Positions 32,951 through 42,914 of a DNA stretch of 64,000 nucleotides are shown here, one piece after another (the stretch's first letter is position 1; the number at the start of each line of letters is the position of its first letter). Made by a program: the position numbers and the translations under genes. Below the pieces are notes generated by a model that did not search any database, was not told the origin of the DNA, and saw only the letters and a program-made list of their open reading frames with translations. The DNA is from a bacterium. Its GTDB lineage: Bacteria; Patescibacteriota; Saccharimonadia; CAILAD01; BJGX01. The stretch lies in NCBI GenBank assembly GCA_029778565.1, contig JAKOQC010000249.1:45611-109610 (forward strand), given 5' to 3'.

Positions 32951-33241
32951 TCAGCGCCCGCAGGTGCAATTCTCGCAACGAAACTCACAGGTAATGACAG
33001 TAGTGACTGCCAGTGTGACAGGCACCTCTCTAGTAGGCGTAACAAATTGAATTGACTTGAGCTTTTCTCTAAATTCTTTCTTGGCAATTGCTTCGGCAAC
33101 GGTATCTTCATCGAGAAGCTCATCGATTTCATCTAAGAGAGCATCAGTATCACTCAGATCACGTTTTGTGACTTCGGGTATGTCTTCGACTTCTTCTACT
33201 TTGTCTTGCTTCTGACTGCTCTTGGTATTTTGTTGCTGCAA
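32951..33241 (-). CDS. small acidic protein with Pup-like DALLDEIDELLDE helix and C-terminal Cys/Thr-rich tail (CEFRCENCTCGR)
   Basis: Clean ORF flanked by a terminator. No family assigned. Confidence 0.3.
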   Translation of the reverse strand: MQQQNTKSSQKQDKVEEVEDIPEVTKRDLSDTDALLDEIDELLDEDTVAEAIAKKEFREKLKSIQFVTPTREVPVTLAVTTVITCEFRCENCTCGR

Positions 33242-33351: not shown

Positions 33352-33751
33352 GGGGCTGTATTAGCTTTGACATATGGAACTTTGAAAAATATTCGCAAGC
33401 CGGGCCGGAATGCACGTTAGCCGTTCCAAAACACTTTAAGTGCCAATACACTTATTAGCAAGGTAAAGGCTGCTTTTGCAGCTCCTAGCCTTGCGCCAGC
33501 ATTTGCCTAATACGCTATGCCGCTTACTACCCAGACACCAGATAGGGTAACAAGCGTCGATTATCTGGATGCGGTCTTACCACCTCTCTGGGCGAGATCT
33601 AAGTAAAAATAAAGAGAGCAAGCAACTTGAGCGCTCTTGTCGGTTTTTTACACTCTTGGGGCTTGTAAAATCCCTTTAGAATCGACTATGCTTGAAGACG
33701 ATATTTTTTCAAACCGTATGGACGCGGGGGCAGAACCCGCCAGCTCCACCA
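33352..33751 (+). ncRNA. ssrA: tmRNA (SsrA)
   Basis: 5' GGGGCUG pairs with 3' CAGCUCC-A-CCA including the G3.U70 alanine identity pair. 3' end GGACGCGGG...CCCGCCAGCUCCACCA is near-identical to canonical tmRNA. TTGACA-17 nt-TAAAAT promoter at 33313-33341. No ORF. Candidate tag reading frame ...AAFAAPSLAPAFA-UAA at about 33453-33497. T loop (GGCAGAA) is atypical. Confidence 0.75.
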
Positions 33752-33756
33752 AAAAT

Positions 33757-33780
33757 GCCTAACCTTTGTTGGGCTTTTTT
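33757..33780. terminator. terminator after ssrA (GCCUAAC-CUUU-GUUGGGC + U6)
   Basis: 7-bp stem with one G.U, then a T-run. Also sits at the 3' end of the convergent small membrane-protein gene. Confidence 0.5.
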
Positions 33781-33992
33781 GATACTATTCGTTTCTTTTT
33801 GAACGTTATTACTCCTACGGCAAGCATAACTATACCAACCGGAAAGGTAACTATGCCAAGCATAGAAATGACCAGTAGGGCTGGGTTGTTGGTGGCAAAA
33901 TAACCAGTCAGACATAGGGGCAGTACAAGTACCAAAACTGTACCCAGTATTACCATGGTAGTGCTACTCATCTTTGATATTAGTTTACTCAT
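33759..33992 (-). CDS. small two-TM membrane protein immediately downstream of the giant surface-protein gene
   Basis: MSKLISKMSSTTMVILGTVLVLVLPLCLTGYFATNNPALLVISMLGIVTFPVGIVMLAVGVITFKKKR. ATG 1 nt after the stop of the 1108-aa gene, suggesting an operon. Confidence 0.3.
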   Translation of the reverse strand: MSKLISKMSSTTMVILGTVLVLVLPLCLTGYFATNNPALLVISMLGIVTFPVGIVMLAVGVITFKKKRIVSKKPNKG

Positions 33993-33993
33993 G

Positions 33994-36900
33994 TTATGTG
34001 TGGTGGTTTTTCTTATCTGTAACGTAGAGGATATAAGCCAAAAGAGAGGCAAGAAGCAATATGCCAATAATGGATGACCACCAGATGAAGATATAAGTTC
34101 GATTAGGATTGTTATTGCGTGTCCTGCCAGTGTTATCTGGGTTGTTATTATTGCTATCGACTATTGTAACAGTGCCTTCAATAGTGCCAGCTGGATGCAA
34201 TACATATCCATTCGTGTTATCTGTTACTGTTTTGGTAGTCGGGCTTACTGGGCTTGGTGTAGGAGGAATTGGCGTATCTTGGAATGTCCAGTATGTGTTG
34301 CCACCACTGTTTATACTGTCGTAAGCAATCATTACAGACGCATTAATATTATTGCTATCACTTACATCTAGATACTGCAAAGTACGGCTGCCTTGCGCAT
34401 CTATTTGCCAAGGAGTACCCGGAGAAGAAGATACGAGTGTGAGTAGTTCTGTAGCGGAGCCGCCTTTTAGGATGAGATCTCCCAGTATGGTCTCGGTACC
34501 ACCAGCAGGGAAGGTGAGAGTATCGGCCGAGGCTACAATTTTGGTTAGGTTATTAAAGGTAGTGCCCATAATAATCTGGTTGCTGCCATCGAGGATTACT
34601 GTTCCGCCATTAGCATTAAAGGTAGAGCCAGTATTGATAGTAAAGTTACCGCCTACAGTCATGTTGGCACTCGTTGCAGTAAAAGTACCATTATTAATAA
34701 CACTAAAGTTACTATTTATATCTAGCGTGTTATATGTGCCAAGGTTAAGATCGGTGCCATCGATAACAAGATTATTAGCGTTTAGGCCTGTAAAACCATT
34801 GAGAGAATTAGAAGAATCAATCTGTAGTATCCCCGATAAATCGTTAAGCGTTCCTGTACCAGAGAAGGTACCAAAAACATAGAGAGAATCTGTATTGCCC
34901 ATGACTATTACTGGATTGTTACCTAGTGGAAAAATACAGTCTGAGCCGACCGAAAAGTAACCCGCCGATTTATTGAACGTTACTAAATTAATGACCGCAT
35001 TGCCACAGAATGCATTCTGATCTTTAGCACCATAAAAAGTAATAGTACCACCGTTAGCATCAAAGGTAGCACCATTATAATTGACAGTAAAATCGCCACC
35101 TATCGACATTACCCCGGCTGGTGCAGTAAAGCTAGAAAAGCTACCCTGAGAAAAATTTGTAAAAATATCAACCGAAGAGAAGTTACTAAAGTCCACGCTA
35201 ACATTAGCTGCAATAAATACACTCCCGCCAACCAATAAGCTATCAAAGCCGGTTAAAGCGTTGGCAGAGCCAATAGTAAGCAGAGAAGCAGAACTAAGAA
35301 AACTTAGTGTACCAGTACCATTGAAGTTACCATTGAGAATAATATCACCAGAATTTGTAAATGTAGGATTATTACCCAACTCAAAACTACAATCAGAATT
35401 GAAAGTTTTTGTGCCAGTATTGGTAAACCTAACCTGATTAAATGTTGCCCCGCCACAGATTATTGTAGCTGTACCATCACTAAACTCAGTGGTGCCCCCA
35501 TTGGCATTAAAAGTAGCGGCCGGGTTGATTGTTAATGCTTTCTGAAAATACATTGTGCCCGTAGGTGCAATGAAAGTGCCAGAATTTATTGTAACCGTAG
35601 AAGGAAAGTTAACACCAGTCACCGGCACAGTAACACTACCTCCTGTCTGGGTGTATGTTCCAGTTAGACTAAACGTTAAGAAACTACTAAAGTCGAGTGT
35701 CGCGTTAACCTCTGCAAATGAACCCGCTGACAGGCCCGAAAACCCAGACAACGATCCGGCACTATTGATTGTCAGGAGGTTTCCGGTAGCTGCCGAGGCT
35801 ATGGTGAGTGTGCCGCTACCAGAGAGTGTACCGTTTAGGATGAAATCTGTGGTCGTACCACTGCCAATAGTTGGGTTATTGCCAAGTGGCAAGCTACAAT
35901 CGCTACCAATAGTTTTTACACCAGCTGTATTAGTAAATGTCACCAAATTAAACACAGCACTATTACATGCAATAGATGCCGTAGTTGTACCGTTAAAATT
36001 TACTGTTCCACCATTTGCTGTAAAGCTACCTGCCGTAATACTGAATGCACCACCTATAGACATCGTTCCACCTGGGGCCGTAAACGATCCCGAACTCATG
36101 CTAAATGCTGTACTAATGGTAAAGGGAGTGTAGCTCCCAGCATTAAAACTACCTCCGGCAATTGTAAGATTCGCTACAGAGAGCCCCGTAAACCCGGATA
36201 GACTAGAGCCGCTATTGAGGGTAAGGGTGCCGGCAGACTGTGTTAGGGTGCCCGTCCCAGACAGCGTGCCGTTTAGCACAACCCCTTGTGCAATAGTCGG
36301 ATTGTTACCAAGCGGTAATGTACAAGTACTATTGACTGTCTTAGCTGCAGTGTTATTGAAAGTTACCAGATTAAACGTTACACTTCCACAACTAAGAGTT
36401 GACGTTGAGCCGGTAATGTTAACTGTGCCACCATTCGCATTGAAGGTAAGCCCAGCTGTGAAGTTCAGACCTGAAGCACTAAGGGTTCCGGACGGAGCTG
36501 TGAATACAGATGTTGCACCTAACGAAAAGCTTCCAGTCACAGCAAAAGTGGTATAGCTGCCAGCATTTAAAGTACCGTTGATTGTTACATTACTTCCTGA
36601 GTTTATACCCGAGAATCCGGAAAGAGTACCCGTTGTGCCCAATATGAATGTTCCTGTTGTAATAGAGAGTGTGCCGCTGCCAGAAAGTGTACCATTTACA
36701 GTAATGGCATTGGTAATAGCGGGGCTGCTCCCTACCGGAATAGTGCACCCAGAACTAATTGTTTTTAGGCCCGTATTGGTAAAGGTTGCCGTATTGAGTG
36801 AAATACCATTACAAGCTATTGTTGCGGCACCACCTGAGAAGTTGACCGTACCGCTGTTGTGGTTAAAGGTCGGAGTGCCCGTTACTGTAACAGCGCCACT

Positions 36901-37320
36901 AATAGATGTTGTGCCAGAACTCGCAGTGAATGTCCCACCAGAGAGCGTAAAGGCCGCCATCGTGAATGACTGATTGGATGCAGTAAAACTCCCAGTAGCC
37001 TGCGAAAATGTGGTTGTAGTTGCGAAGGTGCGAGCTAAGGTGATTGTGCCAGTATACCCAGCAGCAATGGTTAATGTGGCCACACTTGCTGGCGCACCGG
37101 CATCTATCGTCGAATTCTTGGTCGACGTTGCATTAAAGGTAACCGTATCGCCAGCTATCGGACAGGTATCGGTAGTCCAGTTTGCACAGGTACTCCAGTT
37201 ATTATCAGCCCCACCACCATCCCAGGTGAGAGAAGCGGCGTGAGCGTGCAGGGGGTTAGCAAACAGAGATAAGAGGCTCGTAAACACTAAAAGAACCACT
37301 ACAGAGTAAGTAAGTAGCAA
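33994..37320 (-). CDS. giant (1108 aa) secreted, C-terminally membrane-anchored repeat protein, Thr/Gly/Asn/Ser-rich beta-helix-like; putative surface adhesin
   Basis: Signal peptide MLLTYSVVVLLVFTSLLSLFANPLHAHA. About 8 degenerate ~110-aa repeats (FNANGGTVN...C...FNLVTFNNT...S.C.LPLGNNPTI...LNGTLSGSGTL). Pro/Thr linker PPTPSPVSPTTKT, then C-terminal TM IFIWWSSIIGILLLASLLAYILYV plus KKNHHT. Confidence 0.6.
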   Translation of the reverse strand: MLLTYSVVVLLVFTSLLSLFANPLHAHAASLTWDGGGADNNWSTCANWTTDTCPIAGDTVTFNATSTKNSTIDAGAPASVATLTIAAGYTGTITLARTFATTTTFSQATGSFTASNQSFTMAAFTLSGGTFTASSGTTSISGAVTVTGTPTFNHNSGTVNFSGGAATIACNGISLNTATFTNTGLKTISSGCTIPVGSSPAITNAITVNGTLSGSGTLSITTGTFILGTTGTLSGFSGINSGSNVTINGTLNAGSYTTFAVTGSFSLGATSVFTAPSGTLSASGLNFTAGLTFNANGGTVNITGSTSTLSCGSVTFNLVTFNNTAAKTVNSTCTLPLGNNPTIAQGVVLNGTLSGTGTLTQSAGTLTLNSGSSLSGFTGLSVANLTIAGGSFNAGSYTPFTISTAFSMSSGSFTAPGGTMSIGGAFSITAGSFTANGGTVNFNGTTTASIACNSAVFNLVTFTNTAGVKTIGSDCSLPLGNNPTIGSGTTTDFILNGTLSGSGTLTIASAATGNLLTINSAGSLSGFSGLSAGSFAEVNATLDFSSFLTFSLTGTYTQTGGSVTVPVTGVNFPSTVTINSGTFIAPTGTMYFQKALTINPAATFNANGGTTEFSDGTATIICGGATFNQVRFTNTGTKTFNSDCSFELGNNPTFTNSGDIILNGNFNGTGTLSFLSSASLLTIGSANALTGFDSLLVGGSVFIAANVSVDFSNFSSVDIFTNFSQGSFSSFTAPAGVMSIGGDFTVNYNGATFDANGGTITFYGAKDQNAFCGNAVINLVTFNKSAGYFSVGSDCIFPLGNNPVIVMGNTDSLYVFGTFSGTGTLNDLSGILQIDSSNSLNGFTGLNANNLVIDGTDLNLGTYNTLDINSNFSVINNGTFTATSANMTVGGNFTINTGSTFNANGGTVILDGSNQIIMGTTFNNLTKIVASADTLTFPAGGTETILGDLILKGGSATELLTLVSSSPGTPWQIDAQGSRTLQYLDVSDSNNINASVMIAYDSINSGGNTYWTFQDTPIPPTPSPVSPTTKTVTDNTNGYVLHPAGTIEGTVTIVDSNNNNPDNTGRTRNNNPNRTYIFIWWSSIIGILLLASLLAYILYVTDKKNHHT

Positions 37321-37675
37321 TTGGTGGATTGACTTGTGCTGATCTTTTTTCTTTTTGATTTTGTTTTACCCTATGATTTTTTCAATCAACTAGTTATATT
37401 GTATCGAACCTATTGAGATTAGTATATATATAAGTATAAGAATTAAACCAAAGCATAAAAAAAATCGAGCCGCAATTTGGCTCGAATACATTAATTTCTT
37501 TCTATTATTTATTTTGTTAAAACAAATTGACGGGGCTTTATGCCTCCGCCAATCTGTAAAAAAGAGCTTTGTTTTTGTTTTGAGTAATTTTAGTGTGCAG
37601 CACTAAATCCATAATACTGGTTAAGCATAAGCCTTGTCAACAACTTTTTTCAAAGTTTTTTTAGTTTTTTTGCAA

Positions 37676-38850: not shown

Positions 38851-39300
38851 TTAACGTTTAGACTGAATATCGCGGCTAGCATCGCGTAGCATATCACGCT
38901 TTTTTATTGTCTGACGTTTGTCATAGGCCTTTTTACCACGCCCAAGCCCTATTTCTACTTTAATAAGGTTGCGCTCTAGACCCATTGCTAGAGGTAAAAC
39001 AGTCATGCCGGCTGACTGCACGGCTTCTCGAAGCTCAACAAGCTCTTTCTTTTGCAGTAATAGCTTGCGATTACGGGTAGGATCGTAATCTTTGGTGTGC
39101 GAAGCATGTTTGTAGGGGGTGATAGTAGCATTGGTGAGAAATGCTTCATTACCACTAAAGTGCACAAAGCTACCTTTAAGGCTAATTGCACCAGATCTGG
39201 CACTCTTGGTTTCTTGGCCACTCAAAACAATACCAGCTAGATACGTTTTACTGATATCATAGTCAAATTTGGCGCGTTTGTTCTTGGCTAAGATTTTCAT
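38851..39300 (-). CDS. smpB: SsrA-binding protein
   Basis: AKNKRAKFDYDISKTYLAGIVLSGQETKS...LLLQKKELVEL matches SmpB. Confidence 0.9.
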   Translation of the reverse strand: MKILAKNKRAKFDYDISKTYLAGIVLSGQETKSARSGAISLKGSFVHFSGNEAFLTNATITPYKHASHTKDYDPTRNRKLLLQKKELVELREAVQSAGMTVLPLAMGLERNLIKVEIGLGRGKKAYDKRQTIKKRDMLRDASRDIQSKR

Positions 39301-40958: not shown

Positions 40959-42914
40959 TTAAATGGGCAGGCTAAAAAGCCCATCCTTACTAACAAAGTA
41001 GAGCAGGTTATTTTTCTCATCGACAGTAAAATTGGTAATATTAGTTGTGTTATTTACAACTAACTGCTTTTGAAATACCGCGCTATTACCCTGGATAGTT
41101 AACAACGTAAACGAATTGTTACTGCTGTCGAGTAAGAAAAGCGATTCTGGAGAAGAACGGTAGCCAAGCTGTATGACATTATCAAGAGACGGTATACCGG
41201 TAGTGGTAAAGCTTTGGGCTGTATTCTGGCTATATTGGCGAATATTACCTGACTTATTTGTAGTATATATTGTGTTTCCCACAACAAAGCTAACAGCATC
41301 CTTTAGGCTCGGATCGTTTGTCTTTAAGTAATTTGTTTGTGGGCCAAACTGATTACTGCCAACAGAGCGAAAACGGTAAATTTGGCCAGCGGACGGCATT
41401 AAAAAGTAGAGATTGCCAGCATAGGTGGCGGTGGCTTGTGCGCTGGGCCAGAAACTTGCACTCGTACGTGCTTCTGTGACGGTTAAATCTGGTTTAACTG
41501 AGAACACCGATGACTGGGTCAGGGCATAGGTAAGAGGAGAGTCTGTCGATGAAACGAGCCATTTGCTATCAACTAAGCTGGTTTGGGTTTTATTTGTTGT
41601 CTTGTTAGAGCTAGTAATGTAGCCTAGAAGCCTACCAGTAGCTGGATTTAACAAATTGAGTTGTGTTGAAGTGCCGGTTAACAGAGAATACGAAAAGTTG
41701 TTCTCACTAAAGGTTTTTGTGGCACTCACCCGAAAGATATTATGAATTTCATCGAGTTGAACTTGTGAGTATTGTGCAATCTCATCAAGCGTTGGTTGTT
41801 TATGGCCTGAGGCATACTTATTAAGTGTGGTTTTTTCGGTTGCACTAAGGCTAGATATTTCTTTTAGAACTTGGTTAAACTGTGCCTCTGAGTTACTTGT
41901 GTCTTGGTTGGTTTTGCTTGCTTGGGCATTTGTATACAGACCTTGAATCTTCTGATACTCTGTTGATGTTTTGCTATTACTACCAAAAATATTCCAAGCG
42001 ATAATACTAGCAATAATAATAGCTATCACTCCACCAATAATAAGTAATGCTCTCAGTGGGTTTGGATTAATATACGTACTCCATAGCTTTGTCCAGAGTG
42101 ATTGTAAACGATGTGTAATGGCTCTTACTGGTTTTGTTTTGTGAGTATGGGTACTAGGTTGGCTTTGAGTAGTTTTCTTGGAGATGATACGCGATTTAAC
42201 AATCCTGTAGTGTCGTTTAATATTGTGGTGAGCTTTGGCAATAATTCCAGTAGAAGCAAGTACGGGCAACTTGCCAAGAGGTGACTGAGATTGAGTGTCA
42301 AAGTTAATGATTAGGTTAAACCAAGCAGATTCAACGCGACCATGGGTAGTCAAATGTACTGAATAGGCTATTTCTTCTAAGCTATTTGATTTTGGGTTAT
42401 TACTGCTTTCGGCGAGGGTAATAAAAAGATGTTTTAAATCTTTGTGTGATCCAGAAATAATTTCTGAAAACTCAAGAAATTCTTCTGGCGTATAAACCTC
42501 GTGTAGGCGATGTGAGCTGTCTTCGGCAATAATATAGCCTTCACCACAGGCCGAGACGAGAAACTCGCTCTCAGTAATAGTAATGATGCAAATACTATAC
42601 TCGTATTCTTGTCGGTGGTCTTTGTAGTAGTGTCGAATTTCTTCCATACCTGTGTTAATGGCACGAATAGACCGACTAAAGCGCTTAAAATTGTCATCTT
42701 CAATTTCTGCGCGGTAATAATGATCTTCAAAACTTACAATGGCACGTTCGAATACTTGCTGATGCACTTCTCCAGGAATATATGCCAGAAAGAACGTTTC
42801 GCCGTAATGATTGTTATTAGAGTGAGAGTTTAAGACTTGGAAGTGAAAGTTGGCTGCTGTTGGCAAACCTTTTGCGGGAGAGGCTGTCTTATATGTACAT
42901 AACTCTCTTTCCAT
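40959..42914 (-). CDS. hypothetical bitopic membrane protein (N-terminal cytoplasmic domain, central TM, ~350-aa Ser/Thr/Asn-rich extracytoplasmic domain)
   Basis: TM helix LRALLIIGGVIAIIIASIIAWNIF near residue 290. No family recognised. Confidence 0.3.
   Translation of the reverse strand: MERELCTYKTASPAKGLPTAANFHFQVLNSHSNNNHYGETFFLAYIPGEVHQQVFERAIVSFEDHYYRAEIEDDNFKRFSRSIRAINTGMEEIRHYYKDHRQEYEYSICIITITESEFLVSACGEGYIIAEDSSHRLHEVYTPEEFLEFSEIISGSHKDLKHLFITLAESSNNPKSNSLEEIAYSVHLTTHGRVESAWFNLIINFDTQSQSPLGKLPVLASTGIIAKAHHNIKRHYRIVKSRIISKKTTQSQPSTHTHKTKPVRAITHRLQSLWTKLWSTYINPNPLRALLIIGGVIAIIIASIIAWNIFGSNSKTSTEYQKIQGLYTNAQASKTNQDTSNSEAQFNQVLKEISSLSATEKTTLNKYASGHKQPTLDEIAQYSQVQLDEIHNIFRVSATKTFSENNFSYSLLTGTSTQLNLLNPATGRLLGYITSSNKTTNKTQTSLVDSKWLVSSTDSPLTYALTQSSVFSVKPDLTVTEARTSASFWPSAQATATYAGNLYFLMPSAGQIYRFRSVGSNQFGPQTNYLKTNDPSLKDAVSFVVGNTIYTTNKSGNIRQYSQNTAQSFTTTGIPSLDNVIQLGYRSSPESLFLLDSSNNSFTLLTIQGNSAVFQKQLVVNNTTNITNFTVDEKNNLLYFVSKDGLFSLPI

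Follow-up and report, generated by a model that had tools for sequence, protein, structure and literature searches.

A predicted beta-helical surface protein of Saccharibacteria with a conserved N-terminal cap and fast-evolving central repeats

We analyzed a 64,000-nucleotide (nt) stretch of contig JAKOQC010000249.1 (Saccharimonadia), hereafter termed the window. Its minus strand carries a large open reading frame (ORF) of 1108 amino acids (aa), adjoined by an ORF of 77 aa with two transmembrane (TM) segments. Both had been proposed in an initial annotation of the window, and both proved to be real and correctly placed. The subject of this study is the large protein, whose features suggest an adhesin-like surface rod. 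As noted in the initial annotation, it is rich in Thr (16.8%), Gly (12.5%), Ser (11.8%), and Asn (9.9%). Charged residues are scarce (6 Glu, 6 Arg, 6 His, and 13 Lys of 1108). N-glycosylation was rejected as the cause of the Asn/Thr richness, because the 29 N-x-S/T sequons did not exceed the number in shuffled sequences (28.0 +/- 4.2; z 0.24). A tblastn search revealed no paralogue of the large gene inside the window. Coordinates of all features are listed in Table 1.

Table 1. Positions of the large gene, its modules, and surrounding features in the window
Feature	Position	Strand	Description	Basis
Candidate small RNA	37455..37660	minus	unannotated	promoter, hairpins, conservation
Probable true start	37357..37372	minus	AGGG 37372..37369, 9-nt spacer, in-frame ATC 37359..37357	conserved upstream frame
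Large ORF	33994..37320	minus	1108 aa, TTG start	ORF translation
Signal peptide	37237..37320	minus	aa 1-28 from TTG; h-region LLTYSVVVLLVFTSLLSLF, c-region ANPLHAHA, predicted cleavage between AHA and AS	judged by hand
N-terminal cap	36865..37236	minus	aa 29-152, WDGGGxDNNWSxCxNW motif, Cys45/Cys53, predicted membrane-distal	pLDDT >90
Super-repeat R1	36442..36864	minus	aa 153-293, 141 aa, Cys170/192	18 strands, ~6 coils
Super-repeat R2	36019..36441	minus	aa 294-434, 141 aa, Cys311/333	motif anchoring, BLASTP
Super-repeat R3	35509..36018	minus	aa 435-604, 170 aa, Cys452/475, 20-aa insertion	motif anchoring, BLASTP
Super-repeat R4	35062..35508	minus	aa 605-753, 149 aa, Cys622/644	motif anchoring, BLASTP
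Super-repeat R5	34618..35061	minus	aa 754-901, 148 aa, Cys772/795	motif anchoring, BLASTP; 18 strands
C-terminal cap	34270..34617	minus	aa 902-1017, end ...SSSPGTPWQIDAQG...DVSDSNN...GGNTYWTF, no Cys pair	pLDDT >90
Disordered stalk	34093..34269	minus	aa 1018-1076, Pro/Thr/Asn-rich	pLDDT ~35 over 1019-1081
C-terminal TM helix and tail	33994..34092	minus	helix IFIWWSSIIGILLLASLLAYILYV, predicted cytoplasmic tail TDKKNHHT, stop 33994..33996	AlphaFold2 helix 1078-1103
77-aa membrane protein	33759..33992	minus	two hydrophobic segments, Lys-rich termini, ATG 1 nt past TAA of large ORF	
Hairpin	33757..33774	both	T-runs on both strands, likely bidirectional terminator	
tmRNA gene	33352..33751	plus	convergent	
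SmpB gene	38851..39300	minus		
96-aa protein gene	32951..33241	minus		
651-aa protein gene	40959..42914	minus		

A five-unit repeat protein and its predicted fold

The repeats had been described as ~8 units of ~110 aa. This description was wrong: when anchored on the NANGGT motif, the protein resolved into five super-repeats (R1 to R5) of 141-170 aa. Identity autocorrelation of the 1108-aa protein was maximal at lag 141, and unit-versus-unit BLASTP with composition correction gave expectation (E) values of 4e-18 to 1e-32. The repetition is far beyond chance. Both motifs reported earlier, FN.NGGT and LGNNPT, were present, as were the reported pairs of conserved cysteines; the two cysteines are spaced by 22-23 residues in every super-repeat, and a further pair (45/53) lies in the N-terminal cap (N-cap). 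The N-cap and C-terminal cap (C-cap) resemble the units in part only, the C-cap corresponding to the first third of a unit. Nine N-cap residues (W33, D34, G37, W42, N47, W48, P54, D58, and D73) are near-invariant family-wide. The C-cap is conserved across the family, and many relatives terminate exactly at it.

AlphaFold2, run on a 43-sequence alignment, returned a model with mean predicted local distance difference test (pLDDT) score 88.7 and predicted TM-score (pTM) 0.64; 885 residues scored >=90. Residues 30-1015 were modeled entirely as short beta-strands, with pLDDT >90 almost throughout. Residues 1019-1077 were disordered (pLDDT ~35), and residues 1078-1103 were helical. The model contains 122 strands at three per coil, i.e., ~41 coils; R1 and R5 each comprise ~six coils of ~24 residues. 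The beta-helix proposed in the initial annotation holds in this model, which has the right-handed parallel beta-helix of the pectin-lyase-like superfamily. A rise of 0.48 nm per coil would give a rod with an estimated length of ~20 nm. Because the Cys spacing equals approximately one coil, an inter-coil disulfide staple, one per super-repeat, is likely.

A Foldseek search with the whole rod against PDB gave nothing significant (best match Ag43, E 0.18), presumably because global superposition of long solenoids fails. Matches to the S-layer protein RsaA (E 0.5-2.5) were not significant.

The same alignment was examined for conserved charged columns. These were found in the N-cap (D34, D58, D73, and R97) and C-cap (D974 and D988), and one Lys is conserved per unit (K186, K327, K469, and K638, with K927 at the equivalent C-cap position). 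No Asp, Glu, Arg, or His column was conserved in aa 100-900. The repeats thus have one conserved Lys each and no counterpart of the catalytic cluster of beta-helical lyases and glycoside hydrolases. Because the repeats have no conserved Asp/Glu/Arg/His cluster and the protein matches no enzyme family (see below), a lyase or hydrolase role is unlikely.

Predicted export and membrane attachment

The protein as translated from TTG begins with MLLTYSVVVLLVFTSLLSLFANPLHAHA, followed at the predicted cleavage site by AS. This segment has a hydrophobic core and AXA site, in agreement with the Sec signal peptide of the initial annotation when judged by hand; it has no basic n-region. AlphaFold2 placed a low-pLDDT helix at aa 2-20 of the signal region.

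The start codon was examined by comparing the window with two orthologous loci, L001 and L037. L001, a 'Candidatus Saccharibacteria' metagenome-assembled genome, shares the gene order of the window and is the closest public genome to do so; its neighbor proteins are 83-93% identical to those of the window, which is therefore assigned to a Saccharibacterium. In all three sequences the reading frame is open upstream of the TTG position and encodes a conserved block (K-I-K-K...I..LL.TY). The window's TTG is replaced by CTG in L001 and CTC in L037, and neither has a canonical start codon at or upstream of this position. An ATC lies 13 codons 5' of TTG, and nucleotide conservation among the three sequences extends across the block including this ATC. 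Initiation there adds a Lys-rich n-region (M-KKKKDQHK...). The NCBI copy of the protein begins 7 codons after TTG, i.e., 20 codons after ATC. Judging from this conservation, the true start is probably the non-canonical ATC, which would yield a textbook signal peptide with a Lys-rich n-region.

The term "tail-anchored" used in the initial annotation was imprecise, since a signal peptide at the N-terminus makes this a type I membrane protein. A tail-anchored protein in the strict sense would have no N-terminal signal sequence and would be cytoplasmic for the most part; the N-terminal hydrophobic signal with AXA site and the conserved Cys pairs argue for an exported ectodomain and type I topology. 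The description of the C-terminal end stood: a Pro/Thr-rich linker is followed by one helix and a basic tail (KKNHHT), without LPXTG. Projection from the membrane on a stalk, as had been suggested, fits the disordered 60-aa linker and C-terminal TM helix.

A regex scan of the large ORF revealed no LPXTG, PEP, or PGF motif, and the last 60 aa matched no NCBIfam model, sorting-domain models included (E<=10). With no sorting motif before its TM helix, the protein has the signature of none of the sortase, PEP-CTERM, PGF-CTERM, or GlyGly-CTERM systems; anchoring could conceivably proceed through some other sorting system. A hydropathy scan of the 120 relatives listed marked 60 as having a hydrophobic C-terminal segment. 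By eye, basic residues follow many of these segments, and several contain WW.

Constraint on the cap and turnover in the shaft

Comparison with L001 and L037 showed that every gene in the region has reached saturation at synonymous sites (synonymous divergence, dS, ~1-2.7). Nonsynonymous divergence (dN) differed strongly along the large protein. It was 0.015 (L001) and 0.044 (L037) in the N-cap, 0.16-0.22 in R1, 0.39-0.57 in R2-R4 (R2, 0.39-0.45), and 0.05-0.24 in the C-cap. Five neighboring housekeeping genes, with equally saturated dS, had dN of 0.028-0.114: MGDG-synthase-like gene, 0.028; SmpB, 0.040; GT4, 0.062-0.064; aldolase, 0.078; ArgRS, 0.114. The N-cap is thus more constrained than most nearby housekeeping proteins, only the MGDG-synthase-like protein being comparable, and divergence of the shaft is five to ten times that of the background. 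Recent transfer does not explain the N-cap identity, because N-cap dS (1.2-2.3) equals the genomic background.

R1 is clearly orthologous to R1 of L001 (82% identity), and R5 weakly so to R5 (51%). R2-R4 of the window are 42-56% identical to any central unit of L001, about equally, indicating that one-to-one orthology has been lost. From these sequence comparisons, the protein can be read as a functional tip on an exchangeable spacer shaft.

In L001, the orthologue has TAA in place of CAA at codon 117, just past the N-cap (L001 8349-8351), and gene callers break it into ORFs of 98 and 972 aa. Six more assemblies have contigs that match L001 at 100% identity over stretches of up to 3.5 kb. All four that span codon 117 (L038-L040, L042) have the same TAA, and an assembly error was therefore rejected. 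The nonsense mutation is real and tolerated in a widespread clone, which is represented by at least seven assemblies. It is recent, because the rest of the ORF is intact.

Relatives in other genomes

Neither the whole protein nor its N-cap, repeat unit, or C-cap matched any Pfam or NCBIfam model, single modules being searched to E 10. The best matches below cut-off were DUF4403 (E 0.096) and, for the N-cap alone, Amnionless (E 0.0089). Beta_helix (PF13229), NosD, Pectate_lyase_3, and PATR repeat models gave no family above cut-off, and a profile search of PDB sequences gave nothing relevant. No enzymatic family with intact active site and no characterized S-layer homologue, either of which the initial annotation had named as counter-evidence to its proposal, was matched.

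A word-indexed search retrieved 318 relatives, all with repeats lacking Pfam coverage. An exhaustive hidden Markov model search with a five-unit profile found 239 clusters among 1.84 billion representatives, of which 195 had E<=1e-10 and 148 had E<=1e-30. The repeat family is evidently discrete and rare. Its members have 2-18 matched repeat stretches, and the longest is 4044 aa. The sequence family is new, although proteins of this kind are well known.

In species-representative genomes, the family occurs mainly in Saccharibacteria and also in Dojkabacteria, Gracilibacteria, Uhrbacteria, and Peribacteria. Weaker partial matches were found in Bacteroidota and others. The structure-annotated proteome of Southlakia, a cultured oral Saccharibacterium, has one pectin-lyase-like entry; that entry has PF13229, whereas the window protein does not. 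In some relatives, FN3, LysM, Big, CarboxypepD_reg, or FG-GAP modules are joined to these repeats, in keeping with a surface location.

Solirubrobacterales (L003, L010; P0039, P0063, and others) have full-length homologues with 43-45% identity, one of them on a 2.99-Mb chromosome. These homologues have no C-terminal TM anchor. In view of their similarity, genes may have been exchanged between Saccharibacteria and Actinomycetota, the phylum of their known hosts.

Three relatives from Dojkabacteria and other Patescibacteria (P0019, P0067, and P0100) combine the repeats with additional TM segments and a CheY-like receiver domain at the N-terminus. The receiver domain (PF00072) of such members occupies residues ~4-110. 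A cytoplasmic receiver and a large extracellular solenoid on one chain would be an unusual combination.

Adjacent genes and a candidate small RNA

In L001, the start codon of the small membrane protein comes directly after the stop of the large ORF, and in L037 the two codons overlap (ATGA); the protein is 85% and 66% identical, respectively, to that of the window. Only one further cluster was found in 5.8 billion proteins, and the small gene always lay directly downstream of the large one. The protein had no domain match above cut-off in Pfam or NCBIfam, and no comparable small two-TM ORF was found downstream of more distant family members. The "2-TM partner" of the initial annotation is therefore tightly juxtaposed in the closest relatives but absent beside more distant members, and was rejected as a general feature of the family. 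The gene arrangement suggests that it is probably a lineage-specific, co-translated accessory.

The hairpin beyond the small gene is likely a terminator common to the large-small pair and the convergent tmRNA gene. The tmRNA and SmpB genes are 5 kb apart, on either side of the large gene. Genes for class I aldolase, SmpB, and ArgRS lie upstream of the large gene, and its other flank has two glycosyltransferase genes and a GalT-like gene. The neighborhood is a conserved chromosomal one, outside any prophage.

Two other proteins of the region had no Pfam match. One is an acidic protein of 96 aa with a Cys-rich C-terminus (...TCEFRCENCTCGR). It is 86.5% identical in L001, and in L038-L041 a gene for 96 aa occupies the matching place between the tmRNA region and the glycosyltransferase genes. 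The other, of 651 aa, has an internal hydrophobic segment and a Ser/Thr/Asn-rich C-terminal half, and may be another surface protein.

The interval between the aldolase gene and the large gene contains an unannotated candidate small RNA. It is preceded by a strong sigma-70-type promoter (TTGACA-18-TATTAT, 37640..37611, minus strand). The predicted transcript of ~150 nt forms three hairpins, the last of which is an intrinsic terminator (37485..37465 followed by T8). It folds far more stably than shuffled sequences (z-score -5.8). The block is ~100% identical in three orthologous genomes, despite saturation of synonymous sites in the flanking genes. It matched no Rfam family. A metagenome scan found 11 further contigs with the element, one of them being the L037 contig; its occurrences outside the window are L001 7645-7880, L037/L060, L044-L046, L048, L050, L053-L055, L058, and L059.

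The invariant parts are the 5' hairpin (UAGUGCUGCACACUA) and a CA-rich single strand (ACUCAAAACAAAAACAAAGCUC). The spacer between the promoter hexamers is variable, and compensatory changes affect three base pairs of the second hairpin. Terminators of different lineages show no sequence relationship. An aldolase gene precedes the element in every contig that reaches far enough. The genes downstream vary and are often on the other strand; in five contigs, the downstream gene is convergent and encodes an RRM-type RNA-binding protein. We rejected the reading of the element as a leader or riboswitch that serves the large gene, because it always follows aldolase, has its own terminator, and precedes different genes. 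Since the downstream genes differ, the element is a candidate free-standing small RNA of Saccharibacteria.

Discussion

We consider it slightly better than an even bet that the large protein is a Sec-exported, type I anchored, non-enzymatic, adhesin-like surface rod with a functional distal tip. According to this proposal, the signal peptide is cleaved and aa 29-1017 would form one uninterrupted right-handed parallel beta-helix of ~40 coils and ~20 nm, made up of the N-cap, five super-repeats of ~six coils each, and the C-cap. The Cys pair of each super-repeat, if oxidized, would staple adjacent coils. The 60-aa disordered Pro/Thr/Asn-rich stalk would join the rod to the C-terminal TM helix, leaving an 8-aa basic tail in the cytoplasm. 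With the anchor and cytoplasmic tail at the C-terminus, the N-cap would be the end farthest from the cell. The rod would serve as a surface fibril and not as an enzyme. Its invariant distal tip would make the functional contact, probably by binding a ligand displayed by another cell or a surface, and the fast-evolving, interchangeable central super-repeats would be a spacer shaft. The translationally coupled 77-aa protein would be an accessory of this lineage, perhaps in association with the anchor. The structural features of the rod are strongly supported; a role in adhesion or host interaction is inferred from the architecture, fold neighbors, and evolutionary pattern.

Several observations weigh against this proposal. 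The signal peptide started at TTG has no positive n-region, so export hinges on the putative ATC start. The N-cap motifs are conserved family-wide, so part of the N-cap constraint could stem not from ligand binding but from capping, or from nucleation of folding in a protein that leaves the Sec channel N-terminus first. The L001 clone tolerates loss of the protein, which is dispensable at least there. Lyases and phage tailspikes are also among the fold neighbors, and a function cannot be read from the fold alone.

The most credible alternative is that the protein belongs to a structural or protective coat, S-layer-like or brush-like, which provides spacing or shielding without a specific ligand. 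The Thr/Ser/Asn/Gly-rich, nearly uncharged composition would suit such a coat, as would the position of the gene in a syntenic housekeeping neighborhood (ArgRS, SmpB, aldolase, and glycosyltransferases) outside any variable island. A C-terminal TM segment after a Thr-rich stalk recalls archaeal S-layer glycoproteins. Weak Foldseek matches to RsaA point in the same direction; however, they are not significant, and sequence searches revealed no SLH domain or characterized S-layer homologue. A near-invariant distal tip on a freely diverging shaft is unlike a uniform lattice protein, the gene is broken in one successful clone, and the family is rare (239 clusters) and was not evident in the structure-annotated proteome of the cultured oral Saccharibacterium. 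We regard a coat as unlikely, though it deserves serious consideration.

A sensor or receptor ectodomain, signaling across the membrane together with the two-TM partner, would be in keeping with the receiver domain (PF00072) and extra TM segments of some other Patescibacteria members, and with translational coupling to a small membrane protein. However, the cytoplasmic tail of the window protein is only 8 residues, the partner has no recognizable domain and is confined to the closest relatives, and no kinase or other signaling gene is adjacent. A sensor is very unlikely on this evidence. Least probable is a beta-helical polysaccharide lyase, hydrolase, or epimerase acting on host cell-wall or capsule polymers, as judged from the failure of single modules to match an enzyme family in Pfam or NCBIfam with E values of up to 10 allowed, the lack of any conserved Asp, Glu, Arg, or His column within the repeats of 43 homologues (one Lys per unit), the total of only 6 Glu, 6 Arg, and 6 His, and sequence identity of 6-11% to all enzyme structure matches.

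The surface-rod proposal can be extended to a disulfide-stapled "docking rod" confined to epibiotic Patescibacteria and their actinobacterial partners. In this extended form, the almost invariant tip would read a conserved component of the host envelope, the exchangeable 141-aa modules would set how far epibiont and host are apart, and the full-length homologues in complete Solirubrobacterales genomes would reflect exchange of genes between the epibiont and the phylum of its hosts. It is a long shot as a whole. If true, host recognition would have a determinant that does not depend on type IV pili and is amenable to genetics.

Patescibacteria, Saccharibacteria among them, are attached to the bacteria that host them. 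To date, this attachment has been linked mostly to type IV pili, along with a small number of surface proteins with annotated domains (PMC10633639). Natural transformation is known from Saccharibacteria (PMC10633639). If the distal N-cap is the functional end, the family described here offers a concrete candidate for recognizing the host or for spacing epibiont and host. If the tip model fails, the protein is one more beta-helical surface protein of an already common class. The analysis also corrected the architecture of the repeats, and it yielded a conserved, unannotated candidate small RNA and a start codon that is probably non-canonical.

Comparison with known surface proteins

Tapirins of Caldicellulosiruptor bind cellulose. 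Those with known structures (PDB 6n2c, 6n2b, and 4wa0) are 11-12% identical to the window protein and much shorter. SRRP-BR of Lactobacillus reuteri (PDB 5nxk; PMC5866549) has 12% sequence identity to it. SRRPs are LPXTG-anchored, whereas the window protein has a C-terminal TM helix and no LPXTG. As described for SRRPs (PMC6973325), glycosylated Ser-rich repeats flank the binding region, and export is by accessory Sec. In contrast to SRRP-BR, the window protein has no Ser-rich repeat region, and its helix is ~four times longer.

Pertactin, Ag43, EtpA, HMW1, and FHA require an outer-membrane beta-barrel or a TPS domain. The window protein has neither, and Foldseek E values for this group were not significant (>0.1). 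The protein also lacks the marks of type V autotransporters and TpsA proteins: there was no Autotransporter or TPS match in Pfam, and the neighbors of the gene are aldolase, the 77-aa TM protein, and tmRNA. The only significant Foldseek matches were to long, fibre-like beta-helix proteins of uncultured tailed phages (BFVD A0A6J7X413 and A0A6J5QXQ6). These viral models gave E 2.7e-10 and 4.3e-09, with 17-18% identity and low TM-scores of 0.12-0.16. Unlike the phage proteins, the window gene has a signal peptide, TM anchor, and conserved chromosomal neighborhood.

Fibrillar adhesins combine stalk repeats of variable number, an adhesive region, and a cell anchor. The repeat family varies in repeat number (2-18 stretches), and the window protein has a predicted anchor; Pfam detected no known adhesive domain in it. 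Gut methanogen adhesin-like proteins have large beta-helix ectodomains of up to ~1236 aa with a single TM anchor, and have been proposed to reach other microbes (PMC11532034). No sequence relationship between these and the window protein was detected. They are archaeal, their anchor is mostly N-terminal, and Ig-like adhesin domains usually follow the helix; like the window protein, they sit in cells without an outer membrane (PMC11532034). The window protein is a member of none of the families compared here, and in architecture and predicted fold it resembles the single-chain beta-helical surface adhesins.

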